A stretch of 52,496 bases of DNA, taken from positions 1 to 52,496 of IMG/VR virus record IMGVR_UViG_3300028045_000022; one strand, written 5' to 3'. Numbering within the stretch: the stretch's first letter is position 1; each line of letters opens with the position of its first letter. The notes below the pieces were generated by a model, which was not told the DNA's origin, searched no databases, and saw nothing but the letters and a program-made list of their open reading frames with translations. A program made the translations under genes and the position numbers. The DNA comes from a virus (lineage: Duplodnaviria; Caudoviricetes). Positions 11,669-50,677 of the stretch are shown here, in pieces.

Positions 11669-12828
11669 TAGAAATTACTCCTAGGATATCTAGTATTACC
11701 ATTTTGGAACCATGGTCCGTTAGCGTCAGGTCTAGTGTTAACTACTCTATTATGTGTGATATCATCGACGGGATGTGAAAAACCTTTACTAACATCATAT
11801 CTACCACGAACAGCATTATTAATACCAGCACCAGTACCGCAAACAGTAGGACTATTACTAAGAATACCTTGAAGTCCCATAAAACAATCATATAAATCTT
11901 TTTTAGGATCGACGGAACTACCATCGCCGCCACCACCACCATTATATTTGATGGACATATCACCAAGTGTTTTAGTTTGACCTCCACCGTTACCGTCAAC
12001 TTGTCGCATTCTATCTAATAGATTAAATAAATCATATGCGGTTTTACACTCGACATATCTACGAATATTAGAAGGTATTCCGTCAGGTCCACAACCATAA
12101 TAATCGTAACCTATTTTAGCAGCGCTACAATCTGGGCTAACATTCATTAAATCAATTGCTTCTAATGAATTTCTATGTATATATCTATTAATAGTATCTA
12201 CCGCAAATTTATCACCTTCAACACCAAGCATTAGAATTATTCTAGTAGCAGTTGTAAATAGCGGACAATATTGACTAGTAAATGTGAAGTTTTCACTACT
12301 TACTAATTTTAGATTATTTTCACTATAAATAGCATTAGATATATTTACGCCATACTCGGTATTATATGCTAGTGATGAGACATATGATTCACCACTATAA
12401 TACGATGCTGGGAGAATATAAATATCATCATCATCTACTAAAAATCTATATTCAAATCTATCATATATATCAGAATACGCTAATTCGTCAATAGTAACAT
12501 CTATAGTTTTAGTTAATATATTACGCCTATTAGTAATAGCATCCATTTGAATAGAATATATAGTATCTACAATTCCACTATTAACTAATACAGCAATATT
12601 AGCATTATCACAAATATCAGGATCACGCGTAAATATAGTATTATAATTGCCACTAACGGCATCCGAATATGTTTCTAAACGATCTGTGTATAAACCACTT
12701 GCGTGATCATCATTAACATATACGTTATAATCTCTAATAGTTTCACCAGATGCCAATAACGTATCATAATTAAAAATAAGATTATAGAATCTATCACTTG
12801 TTTTACTAAATATTAAATTTCCAGACAT
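11668..12828 (-). CDS. putative head-tail adaptor (neck) protein
   Basis: FTSQYCPLF...RRYVECKTAYDL...KTLGDMSIKY resembles adaptor proteins; gene order supports the call. Confidence 0.5.
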   Translation of the reverse strand: MSGNLIFSKTSDRFYNLIFNYDTLLASGETIRDYNVYVNDDHASGLYTDRLETYSDAVSGNYNTIFTRDPDICDNANIAVLVNSGIVDTIYSIQMDAITNRRNILTKTIDVTIDELAYSDIYDRFEYRFLVDDDDIYILPASYYSGESYVSSLAYNTEYGVNISNAIYSENNLKLVSSENFTFTSQYCPLFTTATRIILMLGVEGDKFAVDTINRYIHRNSLEAIDLMNVSPDCSAAKIGYDYYGCGPDGIPSNIRRYVECKTAYDLFNLLDRMRQVDGNGGGQTKTLGDMSIKYNGGGGGDGSSVDPKKDLYDCFMGLQGILSNSPTVCGTGAGINNAVRGRYDVSKGFSHPVDDITHNRVVNTRPDANGPWFQNGNTRYPRSNF

Positions 12829-13523: not shown

Positions 13524-14237
13524 TTAATTATTTGAATCATCATCTGATTCAAAATCTTCAACAGTAATAGGAGACATAGTAGGTCCTAACGAATTAAGTT
13601 TAGTTCTTAATGCTGCGAGTACAGTATCTCTAGGACGACTTAATCTATTATATCCTTTAAGTTCATAATCGAATAGATCCATTAAATTAACTCTAGCATT
13701 AATAGGAGCATCAGATATAAACTTAATTAAATCATCATGTTTAGTATTATTTAACTTGTCATACATTTGTTTATTTTTACCGTTAAAGATCATATCACCG
13801 TCTTTTTTAAAGGTGAAATCTTTTTTGAGTTTTTTATCAACAGTATCTACTGCTGGTTTTTCTGGGTCAAATTCTATTAGAATACCAGTATTATATGCAG
13901 TTATAATATTAGCTAGTTTAATTTTAGGAATATCCTCAGTGCAAAAATATGACTTATCGTCATCGACATCAACATAACCATAATCACCATGTTGTGTGCT
14001 AGTATTTTTATTTTTATCATCAGGAATTTCTTTACTATCTAAATAACCATTAGATTCAAAAGTATTCCATTCATCATCAGAAATATAACCTCTACCTACA
14101 AATTTAGTGGTAGTATTAAAAAGTGAAATATTAGAACAATTTTCACCCATGTTATCGAACCACATGGTTCCTTTAGCTAATTTTAAAAATTTTGGTAACG
14201 TAATATCATTTGTTTTTGTTGAACTCTTTCTAGCCAT
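13524..14237 (-). CDS. hypothetical protein (post-capsid)
   Basis: ORF track. ATG 14237 is preceded by AAGGAGGTG and a TATACTAT motif at 14275-14282. Confidence 0.7.
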   Translation of the reverse strand: MARKSSTKTNDITLPKFLKLAKGTMWFDNMGENCSNISLFNTTTKFVGRGYISDDEWNTFESNGYLDSKEIPDDKNKNTSTQHGDYGYVDVDDDKSYFCTEDIPKIKLANIITAYNTGILIEFDPEKPAVDTVDKKLKKDFTFKKDGDMIFNGKNKQMYDKLNNTKHDDLIKFISDAPINARVNLMDLFDYELKGYNRLSRPRDTVLAALRTKLNSLGPTMSPITVEDFESDDDSNN

Positions 14238-33566: not shown

Positions 33567-36500
33567 CTACCCCAGTTCTGATAACATTGCTGTTATAAGT
33601 CCGTTGGTAACTGTAATTGTTTTACCATCATTACTTGTAAAGCTACCACTTGCACCTGCCGTTCCACCAACACTATAAGTAGCTGAGTCAGTATCACCAC
33701 TAACTGCAAGGTCTTTGTATACTCTTGTATCGCCATCTCTGTCAATTTCAAATAACAGTTTAGCATAGTCTCTAAATGAGTAGGCAACTTTTCCAGCAAG
33801 AGTAGTATGCTCTTTACCTCCAGCAGAATCATCATCTTCTCTAACAGTGAATATCATATCAGAGTCAACCATTCCGTTATTGGTTACTGCACCAATAAGT
33901 AGTCCAATATCAGATATTCCACTTCCTTTAGCTAATATACTTGGCACTCTATATATAGATGAGCCATTTACTATTTGCAGAGTACCATTAGCCACTGCTG
34001 AGGCATCCCAACCATTACCAGTGTTCGGCAATATTGTAAGGTCTTTTCCTGATATATCTCCACCAACAGCGAGGTCGCCACCAACATCAAGGTCGTCAGT
34101 AATTTCAACATCGCCAACTACATCCAGTTCAGCAGAAGGTGTATCTGTTCCAATACCAAGATTATTATTAGCATCGAGTACCATACCAATAACACTACCT
34201 GTACCAAAAAACATATCACCGTCTTCGTAGTTTAGGACATACGCAGTAGTAGGACCAGATAACCCAATACCTAAACCACTGTATAAATCTGTTCCTGAAT
34301 CTGTATTGGTAATCTTAATTAAGTTGGTGTTCGAACTAGCGTTATGCACATGTAGCGGTTGCGCAGGGTCTGCTAATCCGACACCTATATAACCACCATT
34401 AAAGTATGAAATACCATTACCATTAATATTAACAGTATCAGCAGTAGATGTTCCTTTGAGTGCTAATAAACCTGAAGTGTCAGTGTTCTCAAACATATAG
34501 CCAAACAGGGTTCCACTGGCTGTGCGTTCAAGTGCTAATGCTGGTGCACCTACACTATTATTTTTTACAATCAATGGATATGATGAAGCAATTGTTGCTC
34601 CACCAACAGTAAGGTTGTTAGTAACATTAACGCCACCAGCAGGACCAGATTCTATAGACAACTTTTTAGTGCCTTGTGTCCAGAAATCCAACTCACCGCC
34701 TGTTACTGTGTTCTTAACTGATACATCGTTGGATTGTGCTCCAGACGCTGAACCGTAGGCAACCATTACACCAGCAGTTGCACCGTTGCTCGTGTTTAGC
34801 GATAATACTGAGTTTGCATTTGTGTTAGAGCAGGTAGCATTGATAACAGCAGCAGTGGCATCACCAACTGTGAGAACTCCACCAACATCGGCATCTCCAC
34901 CAACATCTAAGTCGCCATTGAGTATATCAACATCACCCAAATTGTCTATAGTTATTCCAGCATTTGAGTTTGCAATGAATGTCATTACATCGGTGTTGTG
35001 GTTATAAGTAATCTGACCTACTGTATTGCTTGCTTCATCACCAAATAGCATGTATTGTATTGAGGTTGATGGACTCAGAAATTGTAAACCAGTGGAACTA
35101 CTATTTTCTACAACCAAGTCAGTAACAGAGGACGCACCGATTGCTCCAGCCGAACCCGAAAATACATGAAGCCTCTCATCAGGAATTGCTGTTCCAATAC
35201 CAACATTACCACCACCAAAACCGAGAATCACATCTGATGCTGTATAGTTGTTGATATATGTACCAGCGTCTGAATCCATAACTAAATACTTACCTGTAGC
35301 ACCTGCAATAGATGCCTCTCCACTTTTACGCTCAATGGTAATTGCTGGTGAAGCGGTTACGCCATCACCAACGGTTAGAGTACCACCAACAGTAAGGTCG
35401 TTAGTAATGTCTGCATCACCTAGCATATCAATACTTTTATCATCATTCATTACCATTGCAATATCTAAAGAGTCGCCACCATTGACATAAAAATTCAATT
35501 TGCCCTTTAGTGCTGATGGTGTAGCTTGTGTAATTACGCCCTGCATTATTCCATGGATGTTGGTATTTGACAACGCCCCTGTACCTGTCATAAGGTATAC
35601 ACCATTAGCACTATCTACGGCTTCAGCACTATTTCTGAGTGCTAATATTGAACCATTACTACCTGAGTTGCTTACGATAGATTCTATCGCCACATTTGCC
35701 TCGCCTAAACCATCTCCAACTACAACCCTGCCGCCAACATCAAGGTCGCTAGAAATATCTACATCGCCAGTATTATTAACTGTAAATAATTCGTTACCTC
35801 CATCATCCCCAACTGATAGAATATCTTGATTTTGAGTTGAATGACCTTTTACTCTGAGTTGAACATTATCGTCTCTACCATCAATGAAGACATTGCCGTT
35901 AATTCCTGCTGCATATGACTCTGACACTTCTATGCTCTTAGTGGTTGTTCCAATAAGCACTCTTTCACCTGTGGAACTTAGGGTTACTTTAGCGTTTCCC
36001 GTAGGGTTTCCAATGGAAGAACCATCTCCAATTATAACCTCGCCATCAACAGTGAGGTCGTTAAAAACCTCAGTATTCCCTGCACCGTCAATGGTGAATA
36101 GGTCAGTACTATTCCAACTCTCTACTTCTAATATATTTGAAGCTGTTTGAGTGGAATGCGCTTGAACCTTCAGTTGGACCTCATCCGCAGTTCCATCAAT
36201 AAATGTTGCTGAGTCATTCACGCTATCAACATACGATTTGATTGCTGATTGAGTTACAAGGCGAGTGTTTGTAGGAGTAGTAAAGCTAGTATCTGTTGAT
36301 ATATCGTTTACACTTACACTTCCTGAAAGGTCAAAAAAACCACCAACAGTGAGAGATCTTAAAATGTCAACATCTCCTGTAGAGTCTATAGTAACCCTGG
36401 TAGCATCATTAGTGTTAATAGCCATGCTGTCGGTTGCGTTGTCGTAAGCTATTTTACCAGAGGAAACATTGTCTCCTAAGCCTAGCGTAGCCACTGAGGA

Positions 36501-39500
36501 AGCGCCAGCCTCAACATAAACACCTGCGTTCGCACCATACGCTATTGTTACCCTGTCGTCAGCAGTTGCAAAGTTCCCTGCAGTCAATACTCCTGCTACA
36601 TCTAAGTCGTCTGTAATATCAACATCGCCTTCAAACTTAGAATCACCAACAACATGAAAATCAGTATCAGGTGTGATATTGTGTACACCCACTCTATCGG
36701 TGGTATTGCGAATCGTTATTGCTCGCTCTCCTGTGCTTGAATATAAATTAGTATAATCTGCCCCTCTTTGTAATAGTGAGGCACCCGAACCATCATTTAG
36801 CCTTACACTTGTTTGGTTAATTAATAATGCATTATTACCACCTAAGTCAACTTGAAGATATTCAGCACCTGTAGTACCATTAAAGTTCATATTTGCAGAG
36901 CCAGTACCATCACCTGTTAAAATTATATTTGGACCATTGTTATCTTTTCTTATTGTGTTAGCCTCAACTGTATTGGCTGTTGCAATACCTGTAACCGTTA
37001 GGCTGCCATCAACATCTCTTGTACCATCAGCCAATAAATATTGTGTATGGTCATCGTCGTCTAAACCTGTTAATGCTCCATGATCTACAATACTACCAGC
37101 GACAGCAGTTCCAATAGATGATGTTCTCCAATCAATAATCATAGCTGCACCTTCAACTTGCTCATAATCCCAAGTGTTATTACCACCTCGAACAATTGCT
37201 GTTGCAAGTGCTTTATATTCAGGAAAAGTTAATCCTGTTGTAGTTATTGTATTTATTTCACTAGCAGCAGCTTCTCTAGCAGCATTTCTAGCAGTATATA
37301 AATTTTGACCAACTACTGTAAATATTTCCTTATTATTAAAATCTAAAGTACCAAAATAATGATATAGTACATAATTATTATTCGGTACATCCTTAAGTGG
37401 TTCTATCGCATCTGTAATATCATTATATTGTGGTTGACCGCCACCATCTATAGCTACACCTGAATCGAAGAAATCAGAATCCCATTCTGGTGTTACAGCA
37501 TCATATTCATACCATACTGATGATATTTGATTATTAGCAGCATTAGGAATGTCTGATATATTCCATCTAATATCTTCGTCCCAAATGAGACCACCACCAA
37601 TACTAATTTCTTTAGTATTATTTACGGGAACTACTAACAACCCCTCATTACCATATCTAGTACCAGTTGCTAAATGATTATATAAATGTGTTTCCCAATT
37701 CATTAATCCGTGAAATTCAAACGATTCTTTCATTGCTGCATCTCTAGCTTTATTCCACACTATTTCAGCTACAAATACATTATCTCTAATTATTGTATAA
37801 ACATTAACTGTATTAGCTGCTTCGACAGTAAGTGTACCTTCAGCATCTGAGAAATAAATCCAGTAAGATTTAGCAGTTGTTGGTATATCTACTGTTATAG
37901 CGTCAGTAGTTTTATTCATTACTTTTTCCGCACCTCTATAATAATACTCATATGTCGAATCAATAGCGTCTATAGTAAAAGAACCAATACCACCAGTACC
38001 ACCAGTTGGATCAAATGACATAGAAACTTTATCTTGTTGCCATTCTCCATTTGCTAGAGATTCAGTATTATATCCATTATTTGTTACTGCACCTTCAGCG
38101 TTAATCGCAAGTTCATCAATAGCGTCTTGTATATTGCTAGAACTTAAACTAGATGTGAAATTCTCATATGTAACTTCATTACCAGCTATATAACCTGATG
38201 ACCAAACTACACCATTTGATCTCATATATAATCCACTAATAGTAGCTGTTAGATTATTATCTACATCGTGCAATTCATATAATTCAAAACCATTTTGCGG
38301 ATTAACAAAAATAGCACCATTACCATTACTTTCAATAACAATAGTTCCAACTATAGAACCGTGTGCTGGTGAATCTGGTTGTGTAGTTTGCCATTCCCCT
38401 GATGTAACTGATGTCCACACTGTTGCACCAGCATCATCGCCACCCGTTACGTCCGTATTTAGATTACGAACAAGTCCAAACGTAGTAACCCAACCTTGAT
38501 CACCATCAGCAATAGCGTGAGTTGTCATACCTATAATATCTTGCGTTTCCTCAGAAGCAGCTGAAGTTAATTGTATTGTCGCTCTTTGTCCTTGTGAACC
38601 ATTAATATAAACAATTTTTCCATCACCGATATCAGATCCAGTATTATTTAATACTCTTACCCAATTTTCTTGACCAAGTTGTAATATCGAATCTGGTACA
38701 TCTGTTTGTAAATTTAATGTATGATCGTCAGAATTATACCAAACCGCGCCTTCTTCTGTAGGATCATCACCGCCAGATTGTTCGAAATGAACCCACTCTG
38801 CATGTAATCCGCTAACAGAACCTTGATACCAACGACTTGTCGCTTCATCACCAAATGATATGTTATCAGAAGTTGGTAAAATATAATTTCCAGATTCATA
38901 TATATTATTAAACGTTGGTATTTGTCCTGATAAAGTAATGATTTCACCATCAATATAATTCTTAGTAGCTAAGTCTGAATCTGCAACAGGATCTACTCCA
39001 CCAACTGGTCCAGTAAAAGGAATAGCGCCATCATCAGTTACATAATTACTTGGACCACCACAATTAGATTCATATCCAGTTCCAACAAAATACGCTTCGG
39101 TAATGGTAACGCCACTATTGTTATAATAACTATACATATTTATAGCGGTCTCAGCAGGAGAAAATGATCCAGACCTAACAAGTGTTTCTGTTAATACACC
39201 TTGTGTTACAGTTGTAGTCATTGTTAATTGACCTGGTGTATTAAAATCTAATTCAACTACAAAATCAGCAGGAACATTATTTACAAATGTAACAGAACCA
39301 TCAACTCTTGAACCGTTAAAATATGTAGCCAATACTCCACCTATTAATCCAGTTCTAGTATTCGATGTTAAAGAACCACCAATATTTAAAGAGTTTGCTC
39401 CACTATCGGGTTGTGCGTCAGGATCAGTCCATTTAATTCTAGCAAAGGTTAGGTCGTATACATCAACATTTGAACCATTCGCTCTAAATATAGAATACTG

Positions 39501-40700
39501 TCTATTAGAAGTAATACCTAAAGGATCTAAATCAACGGAACCGTCACCATTAAATGTGTAGTCAGTAGAAAATTTATAATCAAAATCGACAGATGTAAAA
39601 GCTGTAGCGCCATCTGCTGTCAGACCTCTTGAAAGATATGTTCCACTAATTGGACAATTAGCGTAACCATCACTAGTCGCAACATCAGCTTTTAATGCTA
39701 GTTCAGTTGTTATTTTATCTGCTGACCATAATATATCATCGTCTGTATTATCATCGTCAACTTCAAATCCTGAATCTGTTAAGTTACCATTAGAATTTAA
39801 TGCTGCTAGATTACCATCTGTAGCACCTGACACTTTATCTGCCTTGTCCTCTAATGCAGTATTGAAGTCTGTAGTAGTTACATATGTTTCTTCATTGCCT
39901 AAACAATCACTTTCAAAGTCCGTTCCTACAACATACAACTCATTAAATGTTATTCCATAGGCGTTATCTGCCTGATTATAAGCTATACCAATTGTGTTGT
40001 CACCTGATGTAGTTCCTGTGTGCTGAACTGTTTCTATTGTTGCACCTTGAGTTACTGTTACAGTTACAGTAGTAGTTGCACCGTCAATTACAACGTCTAC
40101 TTCCCAATCTGATGAATCAGGTTGAGCAAATACCGTAGTACCTTGCTTCAGGTTGCCATCGATATAAATGCTGATCTTATAGTTAGCCGAAGTTACCCAA
40201 TTAAACTCGCTTTGCCAATTCCAAGTAAGCTTAGACGGTCTAGTGCCATCAAACATCTGCTCTTTTGTATACTTCATGTGAAATGACTTTACTTTAGTCA
40301 TGTCTATGATGGAACCCTGAGAATAGAATTCTATATCATCGTTTGATGTTCCAGTAGGATCGAAGAACATAGAACCATCAACATTATAAACAAGATCTGA
40401 TACTGGATTGCCTAACCATTTGATGTCATCACTTGAAAACGCCGTTGCTCCACCTTCCGTCAGACCTCTCGCGAGATATGTTTCACCGATAGCACATGAA
40501 CCATAACCTTCCATAGTCGGTACATCAGCTTTAGTGGCTAATGCTTCTTGTACAGATAATCCTGTAACTATATCTGTTGCTAACGCTGTAGATATATTAT
40601 CTGATACACCACTAATTGGTAAACTTTCACCATCTATTGTGTCTCCTATTAGGAAACCATTTTTAATTTTAAATTCATTAGACATAATTTCACTCTCCAT
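33567..40700 (-). CDS. long mosaic tail fibre / receptor-binding protein
   Basis: 2,377 aa. Fibre motifs include DLATKNYID, GNVGIGTAIP, NLGIGTDTPSAELDV, DHGALTGLDDDDHTQY and repeated GDVDITDDLDVGG spacers, with the terminal GKTITVTNGLIT. Confidence 0.85.
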   Translation of the reverse strand: MESEIMSNEFKIKNGFLIGDTIDGESLPISGVSDNISTALATDIVTGLSVQEALATKADVPTMEGYGSCAIGETYLARGLTEGGATAFSSDDIKWLGNPVSDLVYNVDGSMFFDPTGTSNDDIEFYSQGSIIDMTKVKSFHMKYTKEQMFDGTRPSKLTWNWQSEFNWVTSANYKISIYIDGNLKQGTTVFAQPDSSDWEVDVVIDGATTTVTVTVTQGATIETVQHTGTTSGDNTIGIAYNQADNAYGITFNELYVVGTDFESDCLGNEETYVTTTDFNTALEDKADKVSGATDGNLAALNSNGNLTDSGFEVDDDNTDDDILWSADKITTELALKADVATSDGYANCPISGTYLSRGLTADGATAFTSVDFDYKFSTDYTFNGDGSVDLDPLGITSNRQYSIFRANGSNVDVYDLTFARIKWTDPDAQPDSGANSLNIGGSLTSNTRTGLIGGVLATYFNGSRVDGSVTFVNNVPADFVVELDFNTPGQLTMTTTVTQGVLTETLVRSGSFSPAETAINMYSYYNNSGVTITEAYFVGTGYESNCGGPSNYVTDDGAIPFTGPVGGVDPVADSDLATKNYIDGEIITLSGQIPTFNNIYESGNYILPTSDNISFGDEATSRWYQGSVSGLHAEWVHFEQSGGDDPTEEGAVWYNSDDHTLNLQTDVPDSILQLGQENWVRVLNNTGSDIGDGKIVYINGSQGQRATIQLTSAASEETQDIIGMTTHAIADGDQGWVTTFGLVRNLNTDVTGGDDAGATVWTSVTSGEWQTTQPDSPAHGSIVGTIVIESNGNGAIFVNPQNGFELYELHDVDNNLTATISGLYMRSNGVVWSSGYIAGNEVTYENFTSSLSSSNIQDAIDELAINAEGAVTNNGYNTESLANGEWQQDKVSMSFDPTGGTGGIGSFTIDAIDSTYEYYYRGAEKVMNKTTDAITVDIPTTAKSYWIYFSDAEGTLTVEAANTVNVYTIIRDNVFVAEIVWNKARDAAMKESFEFHGLMNWETHLYNHLATGTRYGNEGLLVVPVNNTKEISIGGGLIWDEDIRWNISDIPNAANNQISSVWYEYDAVTPEWDSDFFDSGVAIDGGGQPQYNDITDAIEPLKDVPNNNYVLYHYFGTLDFNNKEIFTVVGQNLYTARNAAREAAASEINTITTTGLTFPEYKALATAIVRGGNNTWDYEQVEGAAMIIDWRTSSIGTAVAGSIVDHGALTGLDDDDHTQYLLADGTRDVDGSLTVTGIATANTVEANTIRKDNNGPNIILTGDGTGSANMNFNGTTGAEYLQVDLGGNNALLINQTSVRLNDGSGASLLQRGADYTNLYSSTGERAITIRNTTDRVGVHNITPDTDFHVVGDSKFEGDVDITDDLDVAGVLTAGNFATADDRVTIAYGANAGVYVEAGASSVATLGLGDNVSSGKIAYDNATDSMAINTNDATRVTIDSTGDVDILRSLTVGGFFDLSGSVSVNDISTDTSFTTPTNTRLVTQSAIKSYVDSVNDSATFIDGTADEVQLKVQAHSTQTASNILEVESWNSTDLFTIDGAGNTEVFNDLTVDGEVIIGDGSSIGNPTGNAKVTLSSTGERVLIGTTTKSIEVSESYAAGINGNVFIDGRDDNVQLRVKGHSTQNQDILSVGDDGGNELFTVNNTGDVDISSDLDVGGRVVVGDGLGEANVAIESIVSNSGSNGSILALRNSAEAVDSANGVYLMTGTGALSNTNIHGIMQGVITQATPSALKGKLNFYVNGGDSLDIAMVMNDDKSIDMLGDADITNDLTVGGTLTVGDGVTASPAITIERKSGEASIAGATGKYLVMDSDAGTYINNYTASDVILGFGGGNVGIGTAIPDERLHVFSGSAGAIGASSVTDLVVENSSSTGLQFLSPSTSIQYMLFGDEASNTVGQITYNHNTDVMTFIANSNAGITIDNLGDVDILNGDLDVGGDADVGGVLTVGDATAAVINATCSNTNANSVLSLNTSNGATAGVMVAYGSASGAQSNDVSVKNTVTGGELDFWTQGTKKLSIESGPAGGVNVTNNLTVGGATIASSYPLIVKNNSVGAPALALERTASGTLFGYMFENTDTSGLLALKGTSTADTVNINGNGISYFNGGYIGVGLADPAQPLHVHNASSNTNLIKITNTDSGTDLYSGLGIGLSGPTTAYVLNYEDGDMFFGTGSVIGMVLDANNNLGIGTDTPSAELDVVGDVEITDDLDVGGDLAVGGDISGKDLTILPNTGNGWDASAVANGTLQIVNGSSIYRVPSILAKGSGISDIGLLIGAVTNNGMVDSDMIFTVREDDDSAGGKEHTTLAGKVAYSFRDYAKLLFEIDRDGDTRVYKDLAVSGDTDSATYSVGGTAGASGSFTSNDGKTITVTNGLITAMLSELG

Positions 40701-44389: not shown

Positions 44390-44583
44390 AATTAGTCCTT
44401 TATATAGATTTTGTTAATTTTTTTTGTGAGACGGGAATATTAACGTTTGTATATATACATATATATGTAGCCCACCCCCTTTTATATAATATAGTACAAA
44501 ACAGGGATCCTCGCAAGTATTTTATATAAAATTTCATCATCTGCAACTGCTAGGTTATTATATTATGATCAAAGTAGTTTCGA

Positions 44584-44612
44584 TTGATTCGAGCCTACCC
44601 CCTGTTTATAAT
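44584..44612 (+). promoter_or_regulatory. sigma70/sigmaA-type early promoter
   Basis: TTGATT (44584-44589), 17-nt spacer, TATAAT (44607-44612); predicted +1 at about 44619. Confidence 0.7.
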
Positions 44613-44619
44613 AATAACT

Positions 44620-44747
44620 CTGTGGAAAGTACGGAAAACACAGTATAAACCTTGTACATAACAGGATAAAGCAGTTCCTGAACATATCGTTAAACACTGC
44701 GTAATACCTAGTACAGCTAGGAGAGAGGTGGCTATCATGGCTATCGT
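44620..44747 (+). ncRNA. structured leader, copy 1 (full length)
   Basis: Four hairpins with compensatory changes relative to copy 3; invariant GTGGAAAGTACGGAAAACAC. Confidence 0.7.
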
Positions 44748-45009
44748 AAGAAGAGATGAGCTTGTTGTTGGTGATTGTTTCCATGAACTTAAGGGTAACT
44801 ATGACGAATCATTCAAGTACGTAGGTATTGTATCACTACCATGTGGTAAGTGCTATAGATATGAGCGTACAAACAAAATGACAGGTGTTAAAGACATCAG
44901 TCATACACTGTGTGATTGGGGTATATTTAAGGTCGATGTGTACTATAGCCCTGAAGTTGAAAAGGAAATAGAAACATGTGGCCTATGGAATGAGGAGTAC
45001 GGTGCATAG
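44737..45009 (+). CDS. hypothetical early protein
   Basis: ATG 44737 follows GAGGTGG (MAIVRRDEL...). Confidence 0.7.
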   Translation: MAIVRRDELVVGDCFHELKGNYDESFKYVGIVSLPCGKCYRYERTNKMTGVKDISHTLCDWGIFKVDVYYSPEVEKEIETCGLWNEEYGA

Positions 45010-45033
45010 GTAATATGTGTCATACAACATAAT

Positions 45034-45104
45034 TCGAAACTAGTCGTCCTAATAGGGTGGCTAGTCTGTAGGGGATAAGCTTCCTGCACTGATGAGATAG
45101 CTTA
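45034..45104 (+). ncRNA. type II hammerhead ribozyme
   Basis: Core GAAA (45036-45039), GUC cleavage triplet (45064-45066) and CUGAUGA (45089-45095). Stem III is 12 bp, stem I 7 bp and stem II 2 bp; loop I UAAGCU pairs with 3' AGCUUA. Confidence 0.92.
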
Positions 45105-45140
45105 CGTGGAAAGTACGGAAAACACGTTAAAACTTGTACA
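45104..45140 (+). repeat. structured leader, copy 2 (truncated)
   Basis: ACGTGGAAAGTACGGAAAACACGTTAAAACTTGTACA is identical to 45445-45481. Confidence 0.85.
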
Positions 45141-45181
45141 TTTCGAATTATTAATTTAAAGCTTTTTGAAAGGAGCTTATT

Positions 45182-45367
45182 ATGAAAGTTTATAAAACTA
45201 TTGGTGCAAAATGGCGTTCAGAAAAAATTGTTAATATTAACACTAAAAATGAAGAAGATAAGAGGTATATGATTAAGCTTGCGACTAAGGTTGTAGGTGC
45301 TGGGCTTGTATCTGGTGTTATATACATCGGATATTGTTTAGTATGGATAGCTGCTGGCTTAAACTAG
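45182..45367 (+). CDS. small membrane protein
   Basis: AAGGAG RBS; C-terminal hydrophobic helix. Confidence 0.7.
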   Translation: MKVYKTIGAKWRSEKIVNINTKNEEDKRYMIKLATKVVGAGLVSGVIYIGYCLVWIAAGLN

Positions 45368-45383
45368 TAGATATTCATATTTA

Positions 45384-45437
45384 GAACCCAAATGTGCCTT
45401 CTTGATAGTTCGCTATTGAGAGGGCCATTTTAGGTTT
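45384..45437 (+). promoter_or_regulatory. long hairpin (candidate RNase III site)
   Basis: GCCTTCTTGATAG-TTCG-CTATTGAGAGGGC (13 bp with G-U pairs), extended by AAATG/CATTT and AACC/GGTT. Confidence 0.55.
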
Positions 45438-45444
45438 TATATCT

Positions 45445-45570
45445 ACGTGGAAAGTACGGAAAACACGTTAAAACTTGTACACAACAGGTTACAGTAGTGC
45501 CTGAGCATTTCGCTAAATACTACACAGATTCTAGTACAACTAGAGGAAAGGTGGCTATCATGGCTATCGT
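45445..45570 (+). ncRNA. structured leader, copy 3 (full length)
   Basis: Homologous to 44620-44747 with compensatory base changes. Confidence 0.7.
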
Positions 45571-47740
45571 TAAAACTTTCGCAGCACTCAAAAACATCGT
45601 AACATTTACTAACAACGTTGACATTAAACGTATCAGTAAAGAACAAGAAATCATAAACACTATGTCGAAGGAACAGTACTTCGGCCTAAGCGAACAGGAG
45701 TTTAAAACAATGACAAAGTCTGACTGGTACAAGAATGAAGAAACAAGATTGGATGCTTGGTTTAACCGAAAGGAAAGAGGTCTAGATAATGGACCAATCA
45801 TAAACGTTGATATTATAAAAGAGGCCAGAGCAAAGATGCATGCTGGTATAACTGAAGCTGATAACTTAAGAATTGCACTTAACCGTGCTGAGACAAGGAA
45901 TAACAATATGAAAAAGAACGAACTTCGTGCAGAGAAACGTGCTGCTAAGAAACAAGGGACTGAGATGTCTCTAACTATACATGGGTCTAGTTTTAAAGAT
46001 GAAATAAAGTCTAAATCTAACAAAGGAGTTAGTATGAGAAAGATAAGTATGTCCAAAGAGGCATGGGTTGAGACAATGGTTGCTGAAAATGCGGATTATA
46101 GGTATGGTCCATCAAGATTCTGCAATTGTTTTGATCATAAGGCAATATTAAAGGAGGCTATCAGTGAGCTTAAGGATGAGATCGATTGTCTTGATTCTAT
46201 CACAGATGAAGATAGAATATTATATCTTGAGTCTCAGGTTTTGGACTTGGAAGATATAGTGTATGCACCTCATATAAAGACGGAGTTGAGTACAGATGGA
46301 GCATTTGTATGTCCTGTTTGTAATGAATCATACAAGCACGAAGACTTAAGATTCGATTACATCGACGAAGATGAAATCAGAATTGATACAGAATATGCAG
46401 ATAGACGTAATGCGATTCTAGAGTCATTTAAATCTCCAATGCATAACCCAGAAATGAGTAATGAAATACCTGTTGTGATCGATAAGTGTAAGAAGGTTAA
46501 CCTTATTGGTAAGAACAAAGACACAATAGTAGAAAATGTAAAAGCGCTATTTAATACAGATAGTAATGGATCTCTATCATATGAGGATTATAATAAGTTT
46601 GAAGTTATTGAGAGTCTGATAATGACACCTGATGAACTTATTGCATCTGAAACTAGTAGTGATGGACTTGGTAATGAGTGTATGTCATATGAAGCGTTTA
46701 TGGGTTATGATTCTAATGATATGGAACGTAATGATGGTGATGATACAAATGATACACATGATGAATTGGATATAGCTGGGGCTGTAGATAAGATCTTGCC
46801 TTGGATTGGTGAATCTGTAGATATTAGAGGTATGCTCGACTTCAATGTAAGAAATTCTTTCGAGACAACACATGGTCATAAGTTTATACTAGGTAAGACT
46901 GAAGTTAAAGGTATGTTCGCTGACTACTATTTCACAAATCACACAATACTTAGAGAAAGGATTCAAAAGAAGGCAGAAGCTGCTAAAGCTGGCATAAATA
47001 AAGTGAATCGTATGATAGATATAGAACATGCAGATGGTAGTATTACCGAAGAGCGTAATATATCAGATGATGCATATAATACGTTAATTGAACGTCTAAC
47101 TGATGAATATTACTATTGGATGGCTTGGACTGAAGATGAAGAATGGAATGGTTATAAGAAGGTTCAAAATGGTAGAAATAAATCTATAGATCATGTTAGA
47201 GCTGGTGGTACACTTAAATACTACGTGTATATCAATAGAGATGGTAAGATATGTTTCGGATCTCATCCAGATACATATACAATGACGAGTGCAAAATATA
47301 TCGAACACGGCGATACATACATGTTAGCTGAGGATGACTATGTTGCAACTGCATATAAAGTATTTACTAAGATAGCACCAAGAATAGTTTGGAACTATAA
47401 CACATATAAAGGATATAACTTTGTAAATATAGGTATTAAAGGTAAGGATGGAAAAGTACATATGGGTTATGGTGGATTCGAGAATGGTCTTAAAGATGTG
47501 CTTCTAGATATTTGTGGTCAACCTAGGATGGCTGGAATAAACACATATCGTCAGTTTAATAACTTAGTTGAAACAGATGGTATGACTAAATTTGATTCAT
47601 CTAATGAGTTAATATCAAAACTAGCAGAAATGTTAAAGATCGATATTGTTCAATCAATTAAGAAACATAGATCAAGTAACAAATGGTTAGCTGATATTGA
47701 TGTTAAAGATGATAAAACTTATCGCTTTGAACTCAAATAA
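45560..47740 (+). CDS. large hypothetical early protein (726 aa) with an acidic middle and a CPVC motif
   Basis: ATG 45560 shares its RBS and start context with 44737; in-frame internal AAGGAG plus ATG at 46034. Confidence 0.75.
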   Translation: MAIVKTFAALKNIVTFTNNVDIKRISKEQEIINTMSKEQYFGLSEQEFKTMTKSDWYKNEETRLDAWFNRKERGLDNGPIINVDIIKEARAKMHAGITEADNLRIALNRAETRNNNMKKNELRAEKRAAKKQGTEMSLTIHGSSFKDEIKSKSNKGVSMRKISMSKEAWVETMVAENADYRYGPSRFCNCFDHKAILKEAISELKDEIDCLDSITDEDRILYLESQVLDLEDIVYAPHIKTELSTDGAFVCPVCNESYKHEDLRFDYIDEDEIRIDTEYADRRNAILESFKSPMHNPEMSNEIPVVIDKCKKVNLIGKNKDTIVENVKALFNTDSNGSLSYEDYNKFEVIESLIMTPDELIASETSSDGLGNECMSYEAFMGYDSNDMERNDGDDTNDTHDELDIAGAVDKILPWIGESVDIRGMLDFNVRNSFETTHGHKFILGKTEVKGMFADYYFTNHTILRERIQKKAEAAKAGINKVNRMIDIEHADGSITEERNISDDAYNTLIERLTDEYYYWMAWTEDEEWNGYKKVQNGRNKSIDHVRAGGTLKYYVYINRDGKICFGSHPDTYTMTSAKYIEHGDTYMLAEDDYVATAYKVFTKIAPRIVWNYNTYKGYNFVNIGIKGKDGKVHMGYGGFENGLKDVLLDICGQPRMAGINTYRQFNNLVETDGMTKFDSSNELISKLAEMLKIDIVQSIKKHRSSNKWLADIDVKDDKTYRFELK

Positions 47741-47743
47741 TAT

Positions 47744-47766
47744 TAACTGGGGCTTCGGCCCCTTTT
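47744..47766 (+). terminator. terminator-like hairpin (repeated at 48111)
   Basis: TAACT-GGGGC-TTCG-GCCCC-TTTT. Confidence 0.75.
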
Positions 47767-47803
47767 CTAAGGTATTTAATTAATTTTTAACAAAGGATAT
47801 ATC

Positions 47804-48109
47804 ATGATGAAGATTACAGGAAGTTACAGAATTTGGAAAAAAGGTGGGAACTTTAATAACCAGTTTCTACAAATGTATCTAATCATTGATGGTAAGAGAT
47901 TTGCCTTTAGTGGTTATGTTGATGAGAAGGATATGAGTCAAGTTAATATCTTATTAGCTGCTCATTGGGGTAATCTTAAGGTAACTAAGGATCTTAAGAA
48001 TGACAGAAAATCTGAACATGATGAGTATGTAGATTGGTGTTATGCTAGAGAGCTACACTTGAGTACATATATTGTACCATTTCTAATGCAGATTAAATAT
48101 ATAAAATAA
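47804..48109 (+). CDS. hypothetical protein
   Basis: AAGGA RBS; ORF track. Confidence 0.7.
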   Translation: MMKITGSYRIWKKGGNFNNQFLQMYLIIDGKRFAFSGYVDEKDMSQVNILLAAHWGNLKVTKDLKNDRKSEHDEYVDWCYARELHLSTYIVPFLMQIKYIK

Positions 48110-48110
48110 T

Positions 48111-48133
48111 TAACTGGGGCTACGGCCCATTTT
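48111..48133 (+). terminator. terminator-like hairpin, second copy
   Basis: TAACTG-GGGC-TACG-GCCC-ATTTT. Confidence 0.6.
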
Positions 48134-48148
48134 CTAAAGGATATTATT

Positions 48149-48454
48149 ATGAAAAAGAATATAAAAGTAAGAGAAATTAGTGTAACGATGATGGATAATG
48201 GTAAATATAAGCATGCACTTAGAGTATTTGCAGAATACACATTAATGATTGACATGAAGGTATATATTGAATATAACATAAACACTAATGTGTATAATGT
48301 ATACGTTGGATATATGGCTGCGCATAAAGTAATACTTGAAAACTGTTCAAAAGTAGAAGCTTGGGATAGATTATTAAGTATAAAACATTCAGAAGTATTA
48401 GATATTATTAAAGACATTCGTCGTATGGAATATCTAGCATCTCTTGAATCATAA
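48149..48454 (+). CDS. hypothetical protein
   Basis: AAGGA RBS; ORF track. Confidence 0.7.
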   Translation: MKKNIKVREISVTMMDNGKYKHALRVFAEYTLMIDMKVYIEYNINTNVYNVYVGYMAAHKVILENCSKVEAWDRLLSIKHSEVLDIIKDIRRMEYLASLES

Positions 48455-48640: not shown

Positions 48641-48764
48641 CAACAGTGGACACGCTCAGTATTATCTGTAACATATATCGTTTGTGTACGCAGGAGTTAA
48701 AAATGTATAGAATGTCTTATTCAGTGTCTATCAAATGGTTGGTAGGCGCAAACAAGGGGTTGTT

Positions 48765-49073
48765 ATGAGAATAACAGTCGGTAGAGTTGGTACCAACAAG
48801 TTTGGTGTAACCAATATCAAGGTTGATAGAACTACCATCCTTGGTAACCCTTTTCCGATGAAGAATCAGTCTGACAATGAACGCACTCGCGTATGTTTAG
48901 AATATGTTAAGTATTTCGTACGCATGGTTAATTCAGCTGGTCCTTTTCGGGACGAAGTTGGGAGAATATATAAGCTTGCTAAGAGTGGTAAGTCTATTAA
49001 TCTCCAATGTCATTGTGCACCTAAGCAGTGTCACGCAGATACAATCAATAAATTTATAGAAAAATATTTATAG
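48765..49073 (+). CDS. DUF4326-like protein
   Basis: VDRTTILGNPF...LQCHCAPKQCHADTI matches the DUF4326 signature (GNPF; LxCxCxPxxCHxD). Confidence 0.8.
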   Translation: MRITVGRVGTNKFGVTNIKVDRTTILGNPFPMKNQSDNERTRVCLEYVKYFVRMVNSAGPFRDEVGRIYKLAKSGKSINLQCHCAPKQCHADTINKFIEKYL

Positions 49074-49118
49074 AATGTCTTAATTGATGTTCTATTTAAC
49101 TTTTTTAAAGGAGTTCAC

Positions 49119-49313
49119 ATGGGTGAATTTATGAAAGCTTTTAAGAATGACTTAGCAATAAGTTTATTCGGTAGGAGCCAAGATGAAGCACAGGATAAAG
49201 CAATTTGTGTTTCTTGTGGCGGAGATGCAAGCGAATTCGTTGACGAAGTAAGTCAGCACGAATACTCCATTTCAGGAATGTGTCAAAAGTGTCAAGATGA
49301 ATTTTTTGGCTAA
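49119..49313 (+). CDS. small zinc-binding protein
   Basis: CVSCG...EYSISGMCQKCQDEFFG; AAGGAG RBS. Confidence 0.75.
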   Translation: MGEFMKAFKNDLAISLFGRSQDEAQDKAICVSCGGDASEFVDEVSQHEYSISGMCQKCQDEFFG

Positions 49314-49392
49314 ATAAAATTAGAATGTCTTATTCAGTGTCTCTTAGGTGAGGCACTACTATAAGATTTTTTAACATTTTCAAGGATTTATT

Positions 49393-49545
49393 ATGAAAAA
49401 TTTAGTTGATCTTTTTAGCTCAGACGTGTCACATTTGTTACATTTAGGTTTTAGGCCTGAAGATTTCAATCCAAGACCCGTAGATAAAGTTGAGTTTGGA
49501 TACAAGGAAGATTTCTTAGATACAGAGTTTGATGACTTTGACTAA
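49393..49545 (+). CDS. 50-aa acidic peptide
   Basis: Manual translation MKNLVDLFSSDVSHLLHLGFRPEDFNPRPVDKVEFGYKEDFLDTEFDDFD; AAGGA RBS. Confidence 0.65.
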   Translation: MKNLVDLFSSDVSHLLHLGFRPEDFNPRPVDKVEFGYKEDFLDTEFDDFD

Positions 49546-49599
49546 GAAAAATAAATAGAATGTCTTAATTGATGTTATTCAAAGGAGTTCATCACCAAA

Positions 49600-50160
49600 T
49601 AGCCTTATATCTCTGACTGGTGAATCAGAGGGAAATTATTAGATAAGAGCAAACTAATGATTAAATATGAGGCCACCGCTCGTTTTTAACTAAAGGAGTA
49701 GCAGAAATGCTATAGTTTCAGACCTGAGTCATGTCACAAAACTGACTTATTACGGACTATATGGGGGTAGGATCTCTTCACTTATGAACAGTAATGTTCT
49801 CGGTGAGTAGTCTGGGGGTTTGGTACTGACCTAATTAGTAAAGTACTACTGGTTTTTAATGATTGCACCAGTTATCCTAAAACAATCATAATTCGTATCT
49901 AAAATCTGGGAAGGCTTTGCGGAGCTGGAGTAAAAGATACGTGCATTTTTGTAGTAGATCTTAATAACAACACTACATTGATGTACTTAAATATTAAAGT
50001 TGTTATAGGAGTTGTGTACACTTCTTTGATGGTATAAAACCAAAGTGCATTTATGCGTAATAATTTGATATTGTGTCTAGTAACGCGCCAATATCATCTT
50101 ACTGAAAGACTACAGCGTGTTAAAGGAGTTGGGTACACTTCTAATAAAAACAAGTGCCCA
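49600..50160 (+). ncRNA. ORF-free array of structured RNA modules (three-way junctions plus six H-type pseudoknots)
   Basis: No ORF of 60 aa or more. Pairings are listed in the findings; non-Watson-Crick stem positions are G-U on the + strand. Confidence 0.75.
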
Positions 50161-50230
50161 TTATATTTTATAAGATATACTAAAATGAATAGTGCGTCTT
50201 ATTAAGTATAATTTTTAACTAGGAGGATAT

Positions 50231-50512
50231 ATGAGAGATCATTTATCAAAATTGAACTTCAAATATGACGACAAAGGTCAACAAGCTATTCTTTTCTTCC
50301 TTAATGGATATGGTGTATCTGTTGTATGGGGAGAAGGTAGGTACGGTGATGGTGTTGATTCTTGGGAATTGGCTGTACTCAAAGGTGAAATGGATAATTG
50401 GGAACTATGTTATGACACTGATGTAACTTGTGATGTTATGGGTTGGTTAGATCGCAGTGAGGTTAACAAGGCAATCGAAGATGTTTACAAGTTAGAATTT
50501 GTAAATGAATAG
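50231..50512 (+). CDS. hypothetical phage protein
   Basis: AGGAGG RBS; FLNGYGVSVV...WELAVL...DVMGWL pattern. Confidence 0.75.
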   Translation: MRDHLSKLNFKYDDKGQQAILFFLNGYGVSVVWGEGRYGDGVDSWELAVLKGEMDNWELCYDTDVTCDVMGWLDRSEVNKAIEDVYKLEFVNE

Positions 50513-50677
50513 AGTGTCTTAATTATTGATTCTTGATTAAGGAGGAACCACAATTGAGGGTTTACTAAGAGAGTTAGGTATCTACTGTAAAAGATATTAA
50601 TTCCATCTAAGAAGAGAGGGATGGTATAACAAATACTTCTCAAACTAATTTTTTTAAAACAATATCTAGGAGATATT

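Follow-up and report, generated by a model that had tools for sequence, protein, structure and literature searches.

The viral contig analysed in this study is a record of 52,496 bases estimated to be 23% complete, and its whole length is referred to here as the window. The sole sequencing run found to hold this stretch is a DNA run labelled as seawater metagenome, which may be the source sample. The minus strand encodes terminase, portal, major head and tail-sheath proteins, and a reading frame of 2377 amino acids without Pfam or PHROG match lies at the end of this structural block (33567-40700, minus strand). Small genes on the plus strand, with no known family, make up a divergent block that begins near 44.6 kb. 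The window contains no tRNA or tmRNA genes.

The elements at the start of the divergent block follow each other on the plus strand in the order promoter, leader copy 1, ORF1, hammerhead, leader copy 2, ORF2, terminator-like hairpin, leader copy 3 and ORF3. The best promoter of the region is sigma-70-like (44584-44612, plus strand; TTGATT, a 17-nt spacer and TATAAT, with 10 of 12 matches) and is recognized by its match to the consensus only; the transcript start predicted from it, at ~44619, is the first base of leader copy 1. The upstream gene, ORF1 (44738-45009), belongs to no known family and has an ATG at 44738 and an alternative GTG start at 44728. The downstream gene, ORF2 (45182-45367), encodes 61 amino acids and is preceded by the Shine-Dalgarno sequence AAGGAG at 45170-75, which is partly buried in a local hairpin formed by 45159-66 with 45171-78. 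A 13-bp hairpin with a T-rich tract, resembling a terminator, is located between ORF2 and leader copy 3 (45396-45425, plus strand), and ORF3 extends from an ATG at 45551 to 47740.

The preliminary description of this DNA had placed a hammerhead ribozyme between the first two early genes of a polycistronic message. The position is as described, since the element lies between ORF1 and ORF2 on the same strand. The polycistronic reading also fits, with the sole good promoter being upstream of ORF1 and no sigma-70 promoter-like or terminator-like site being found in a scan from the ORF1 stop to 45155. We infer that ORF1 and ORF2 are carried on one transcript, and consider them as putative "early" genes from their position only.

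Each of these three consecutive genes is preceded by a copy of a repeated leader, which occurs in the record three times only. Leader copies 2 (45103-45140, plus strand, 38 nt) and 3 (45444-45481, plus strand) are 100% identical, and copy 1 (44619-44656, plus strand) is 71% identical to copy 2. Leader copy 2 contains a hairpin of 5 bp (45104-08 with 45123-27) closing a conserved loop of 14 nt, GAAAGTACGGAAAA, that is the same in all copies, while two compensatory double changes set the 5-bp stem of copy 1 apart from that of copies 2 and 3 (CTGTG/CACAG vs ACGTG/CACGT). The compensatory changes in the stem and the constant loop suggest that the leader is a functional RNA hairpin. Searches in Rfam gave no match for the leader; a leader 18-mer had two matches in viral contigs, both inside unrelated coding sequence, and a leader 20-mer had one match in metagenome contigs, in an unrelated reading frame which by eye resembles a mismatch-repair gene.

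Further repeats were observed among the plus-strand genes. ORF1 and ORF3 share 77% identity over 116 nt covering their 5' untranslated regions and first codons (44637-44752 vs 45460-45575), and the proteins of both genes begin with MAIV, so that a duplicated front end is common to the two genes. Two near-identical terminator-like elements, ATTAACTGGGGCTTCGGCCCCTTTTCT, with 85% identity over 41 nt, follow ORF3 (47742-47782) and the next gene (48109-48149). Besides, a motif of ~22 nt, AAATGAATAGAATGTCTTAATT, and its variants occur at 48701, 49064, 49314, 49549, 50183 and 50503 (within 48699-50524) ahead of small plus-strand genes, and may represent a second promoter or regulatory class for the later part of the divergent block.

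The element at 45034-45104 (plus strand) is a type II hammerhead ribozyme, identified by its sequence, by descriptor scans and by covariance models, and the original observation of a hammerhead was confirmed base for base. At the coordinates given earlier we find the canonical core, a minimal stem II and a pseudoknot that joins loop I to the 3' tail. From 5' to 3', the strands are ordered as stem II 3' strand, GAAA, stem III hairpin, C17, stem I hairpin, CUGAUGA and stem II 5' strand; loops close off stems I and III, while stem II is open, which is the type II permutation. Descriptors for type I and type III hammerheads found nothing at 45034-45104.

The 5' end of the element (45034-45039) comprises the stem II 3' strand, with T45034 and C45035 (position 11.1), followed by the core GAAA at 45036-39 (G12-A13-A14-A15.1). 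The stem III hairpin (45039-45065) consists of 12 pairs, 45039-50 with 45054-65, around an AAT loop; its first pair is A15.1-U16.1 (A45039-T45065), C45040 stands directly 3' of the core GAAA, and 3 of the 12 pairs are G-U. The triplet GTC occupies 45064-66, and scission is thus predicted between C45066, which is C17 by core numbering, and T45067. The stem I hairpin (45067-45088) has 7 pairs, 45067-73 with 45082-88, two of them wobbles, and a loop at 45074-81, to which RNAfold adds an eighth pair (G45074-T45081). The core CUGAUGA (45089-95) and the stem II 5' strand with G45096 (position 10.1) and A45097 then complete the conserved part (45089-45097), stem II being formed by two pairs, C45035-G45096 (G10.1-C11.1) and T45034-A45097. 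Accordingly, every invariant position of the core is present, i.e., C3-U4-G5-A6-N7-G8-A9, G12-A13-A14, the A15.1-U16.1 pair and a nucleotide other than G at H17 (C17), together with G10.1-C11.1 and also C15.2-G16.2.

The pseudoknot 3' strand AGCTTA (45099-45104) begins one nucleotide, a U, after stem II. The type II pseudoknot, which most but not all members have, is taken here as four or more pairs linking loop I to the bases that immediately follow stem II on its 3' side; six are present, between TAAGCT at 45076-81 and AGCTTA at 45099-104, all of them Watson-Crick, in agreement with the preliminary description. The hexamer AGCTTA occurs seven times only on the plus strand of the 52 kb, and one further copy, at 45174-79, forms the 3' strand of the hairpin at the ORF2 Shine-Dalgarno sequence and is identical to the pseudoknot 3' strand; loop I could therefore pair with either copy. 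Stems III and I were present in both the minimum free energy (MFE) and the centroid structures computed by RNAfold, for the element alone and in a context of 196 nt. Stem III was also considered as an intrinsic (Rho-independent) terminator, which we rejected because no U-run follows it, the next sequence being CTGTAGGGG; a scan detected no terminator-like site at 45039-45088.

The whole window was scanned on both strands with a loose type II descriptor (at least 4 pairs each in stems III and I, and at least 2 in stem II). The same descriptor produced 278 matches in 3374 Markov shuffles of the window, among which the largest sum of stem III and stem I pairs was 14, compared to 20 at 45034-45104. 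A chance origin of the element is excluded for practical purposes. One other loose match was found in the window, inside a gene on the minus strand (plus-strand positions 14072-14232); its stems have 4, 4 and 2 pairs and it spans 160 nt, which is the level of chance. Neither the descriptors, beyond chance level, nor the covariance model R1 described below, with filters off, detected other hammerheads in the window, and a search for a second ribozyme before leader copy 3 with Rfam (45365-45455) gave two weak microRNA-hairpin matches only.

The Rfam Hammerhead_II model (RF02276), which had been suggested as a check of the element, gave a mixed result. It aligned over its full length, positions 1-66 of 66, on 45032-45106 in a search of 81 nt (30.9 bits, E 3.5e-5; an E-value of ~0.02 by our own arithmetic when scaled to the whole window and all families), but did not reach the gathering score of 37 bits, so that the element falls outside the formal Rfam definition. 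RF02276 was absent at the gathering threshold on the whole window, at E <= 10 on 251 nt and in a search of the record with RF02276 only. The match appeared only under the laxer filters that a short input such as the 81 nt receives. To put this score in perspective, 22 descriptor-positive hammerheads at 20 loci, taken from the matches listed in the viral-contig search described below, were searched with the same library: 11 were reported at E <= 1, 6 reached at least 37 bits, and the three most similar hammerheads of the matches listed were unreported by Rfam. With 6 of 22 reaching the gathering score, falling short of it is the normal case in this phage group. The default filters and gathering score of Rfam thus overlook the present element and many similar phage hammerheads, and routine annotation under-counts them.

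In viral contigs, at least 129 stretches fitted a pattern made from the core blocks and spacing of the 45034-45104 element. The matches listed yielded 160 candidate parses, the window's own included, of which 100 passed the stem test, and 93 distinct sequences among these listed matches were aligned (alignment A2) and used for the covariance model R1. When R1 was run with filters off on the 52 kb window, its sole real match was 45032-45108, with 52.4 bits (E 4.7e-12) compared to 6.6 bits for the runner-up, a test which is partly circular because the training set came from the pattern of this very element. Among the matches listed, stem II most often has two pairs (44 of the 99 comparison matches passing the stem test), and an SD-like motif occurs within 22 nt after the core in 55 of the 100 listed stem-test passers, window included. 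Several copies close together were also observed among the listed loci L049-L177, with three in L117 and two in L125, as were pairs of hammerheads on the same contig (L090/L091, L094/L095, L098/L099 and L120/L121).

The closest relatives among the matches listed are the IMG/VR loci L060, L131 and L132, followed by L067, L118 and L134. Like the window, these six loci have the stem III frame TCGAAACTAG...CTAGTC, a loop I composed of 3 nt, the 6-nt pseudoknot strand and 1 nt, and a tail of the form GAGA-N-AG(G/C)(C/T)TA, and their stems and pseudoknot are in register with those of the window, as is seen for the stem I hairpin in L060, L131 and L132. Their sequences in stem I, inner stem III and the pseudoknot differ from those of the window by compensatory changes. 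The closest listed relatives have a third pair in stem II, whereas the window has a U-U mismatch at that place. All six are found after one reading frame has ended and ahead of the Shine-Dalgarno sequence and start of the gene that follows; their flanking genes are unrelated to those of the window, as far as can be seen from 300-400 nt of flank.

An alignment of 11 rows including the window was examined for covariation. Paired cells amounted to 87.1%, compared to 64.1% in shuffled alignments (0 of 500 reaching the observed value) and 29-38% when the partners were slid, and in 19 of 24 pairs, 5 of the 6 in the pseudoknot among them, both partners changed, although these counts lean towards structure because the rows were pre-selected for stems I-III and the subgroup by loop sequence or pseudoknot length. 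The pseudoknot of the window lines up column for column with those of L060 and L131, from which it differs by compensatory changes, and is a feature which the models do not score.

Searches for the locus itself in other phages were negative. The region 44700-45500 had no blastn match in 50,697 phage records. The 747-aa product of ORF3 had no relative in viral contigs and no homologue among the proteins of 410-1308 residues in a set of 5.8 billion proteins, and a neighbouring 656-aa protein had 16 distant loci with 38-48% identity. When L004-L021 (218,321 bases) were scanned with the descriptor, a single match came up, at the level of chance. In five related phage contigs (G001-G005) the terminase is 66-80% identical, with no DNA similarity to 44600-45500, and descriptors of types I, II and III applied to all their 225,648 bases returned weak matches only and no hammerhead. 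One of them, G002, keeps the syntenic divergent region but has neither the hammerhead nor the leader. By eye, a C-rich block, CCCACCCCC or CCTACCCCC, stands a few bases upstream of a TATAAT-like hexamer in this phage and in G002 (44470-44500 and 44594-44612 in the window; 12494-12520 and 12605-12630 in L044), and this block in the divergent promoter region may be a promoter element common to both. Overall, no orthologue of the hammerhead locus was found in the phage, viral-contig and metagenome searches or in G001-G005, and the missing counterpart in these five related contigs indicates that the element is lineage-specific.

We consider it probable that this element is a genuine type II hammerhead of the phage and prophage kind, which cuts one ORF1-ORF2 message between 45066 and 45067 and is thereby likely to uncouple the two genes. 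The message would start at the promoter at 44584-44612 and run through ORF1 into ORF2, and the ribozyme would fold during transcription by forming stems III and I and the pseudoknot. The 2'-OH of C45066 would then attack the next phosphate and cut the chain between C45066 and U45067. Hammerhead cleavage leaves a 2',3'-cyclic phosphate on the upstream RNA and a 5'-OH on the downstream RNA. Because of the type II topology, both new ends would be capped by a hairpin. The ORF1 RNA would end with the 12-bp stem III hairpin and a C carrying the 2',3'-cyclic phosphate, and the first nucleotide of the ORF2 RNA, bearing the 5'-OH, would be the first paired base of the 7-bp stem I, with leader copy 2 coming next. 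This predicted 3' product starts 36 nt upstream of leader copy 2, which agrees with the earlier proposal that it would begin just before that leader. Both kinds of ends resist the main exonucleolytic and 5'-end-dependent pathways of bacterial mRNA decay. The likely effect would be a natural insulator, in which the two genes are uncoupled, each with its own stability and translation and each with a protected end. Cleavage itself, as well as its consequences for RNA stability, are deduced here from sequence and should be read as predictions. Hairpin-capped ends would offer a concrete and testable reason for phages to use the type II permutation inside operons.

Two other explanations of the locus give the hammerhead a lesser role or none. 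In one of them, ORF1 and ORF2 are separate transcription units, the leaders being promoters or starts for a phage-specific polymerase and the hammerhead a 3'-end former that trims read-through from ORF1. The arrangement of the leader points in this direction, as it is 100% identical at 45103-45140 and 45444-45481, stands ahead of three consecutive genes and, in copy 1, has its first base where transcription is predicted to start. Beside the region, the contig also encodes a 2377-aa protein with no known family. However, the two compensatory double changes in the leader stem are those expected of a folded single strand rather than of a duplex promoter, the leader has three copies only in the record, no polymerase was identified, and no sigma-70-like site was found in or before leader copies 2 and 3. 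We thus regard separate transcription units as improbable. The probability is lower still for an inactive look-alike, in which a chance or decayed hammerhead-like sequence would leave hairpins acting as an RNA stability element or a protein site. A score below the Rfam gathering score would agree with such a look-alike, as would a stem II of two pairs, wobbles in 3 of 12 stem III pairs and 2 of 7 stem I pairs, and the lack of an orthologue that would show conservation. Against this stand the intact state of every invariant core base, the 20 stem pairs compared to 14 in the best of 3374 shuffles, and a pseudoknot of 6 bp, all Watson-Crick, which is in the exact register of related hammerheads and which the models leave unscored. 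The low Rfam score itself is shared by most of the calibration set, the gathering score being reached by only 6 of the 22 listed descriptor-positive hammerheads, and a stem II of two pairs is the commonest form among the listed comparison matches (44 of 99) and is described as common in PMC3088659.

A further possibility is a genuine hammerhead whose cleavage is gated, i.e., a real ribozyme that is held off in the finished transcript by a downstream strand. The sequence ATAATTCGAAA (45029-45039, plus strand), which covers the stem II strand and the whole core GAAA, is the 5' arm of an alternative helix; its perfect 11-nt complement TTTCGAATTAT (45141-45151, plus strand), which we call the "anti-core" strand, stands directly after leader copy 2. 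The exact 11-mer is found only at 45029-39 and 45141-51 in the 52-kb window. Shuffling the downstream 150 nt gave a complement of at least 11 nt in 5 of 20000 cases, and among 7428 random 14-mers taken from the window 4 had one; the p-values are post hoc, as the feature was seen after looking at the fold. Both the MFE and the centroid structure of 45005-45200 form the 11-bp helix between 45029-39 and 45141-51, which encloses leader copy 2 and removes the stem II strand and the catalytic GAAA from the ribozyme. For 45020-45160, the alternative fold was computed at -32.7 to -33.5 kcal/mol and the hammerhead-compatible fold at -22.7 kcal/mol, with pair probabilities of 0.78-1.0 for 10 of the 11 helix pairs and of 0 for stem II. 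Given this gap of ~10 kcal/mol in favour of the alternative fold, the full-length RNA may be largely inactive, and with a downstream strand predicted to cover the core, the ribozyme may not cut constitutively.

The comparison with other hammerheads sets the window apart in this respect. For pairing of G12-A14 with downstream sequence the predicted probability is 0.92 in the window, while among the 93 other listed viral-contig hammerheads the median is 0.04 and the maximum 0.60, none of the 93 reaching 0.92. The longest downstream complement to the core was at most 8 nt in all 91 of these 93 listed hammerheads in which it was measured, and the six closest listed loci likewise never exceed 8 nt. 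The rarity of the perfect complement, the helix recovered in both predicted structures, the energy difference and the exceptional pairing of G12-A14 all argue for a gated ribozyme. On the other hand, a TTCGAA palindrome gives part of the complementarity free, the energy model takes no account of the pseudoknot, of the Mg-dependent tertiary core or of transcription order, in which the competitor emerges 37 nt after the ribozyme has been completed, and the window provides a single example. Taken together, gating is a possibility that we advance tentatively on the basis of predicted folds. If it applied, cleavage would be confined to a short interval preceding transcription of the competitor, or to occasions on which the helix is opened; candidate openers are a factor bound to leader copy 2 or a ribosome on the ORF2 site ~20 nt downstream. 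It is more doubtful, though conceivable from the same modelling, that a dedicated anti-core strand makes self-cleavage a conditional switch or a timer for the separation of the ORF1 and ORF2 messages during infection. In our literature searches, which were not aimed at such a case, we met no dedicated anti-core strand beside a phage type II hammerhead.

The preferred reading, an ORF1-ORF2 message divided by a type II hammerhead, places the window among systems that are already well represented. Thousands of type II hammerheads between phage genes have been catalogued since 2011. The one described here is an ordinary, clean example, and it comes from a marine phage lineage with almost no relatives in collections. 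The report of Perreault et al. 2011 (PMC3088659) describes type II hammerheads as common in bacteria, with stem II commonly made of as few as two pairs, and states that disruption of the pseudoknot cuts the rate by orders of magnitude and that prophage genes are often flanked by several hammerheads; regulated cleavage in bacteriophages appears there as speculation only. A review (PMC6765202) mentions a suggested role in the processing of polycistronic transcripts into RNAs that differ in stability or translation, and treats the purpose as not settled. The architecture and phage context have thus been known since 2011 (PMC3088659), and the element in the window is a further example. It shares with the type II hammerheads of RF02276 and of PMC3088659 the core, the permutation, the stem II of two pairs, the pseudoknot and the intergenic position in a phage. 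It differs from the RF02276 type in the one unpaired U between stem II and the pseudoknot. Besides, a 38-nt repeated leader separates the ribozyme from the next ribosome-binding site in the window, whereas in many others the Shine-Dalgarno sequence directly follows the tail.

The proposed role may also be compared to engineered systems. In insulators of the RiboJ type, a hammerhead placed before a gene strips the upstream RNA and leaves a 5'-OH and a hairpin. By analogy, an insulator action like that of RiboJ may be expected for the window, where the hammerhead is natural, of type II and located inside a phage operon. Inactive alternative folds are known for viroid hammerheads and for engineered allosteric hammerheads, in which, as in the window, a competing helix that takes core nucleotides would switch the ribozyme off, with the difference that such a helix is only predicted in the window. 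The anti-core strand, if functional, would add natural conditional hammerhead cleavage in a phage to these viroid and engineered cases.
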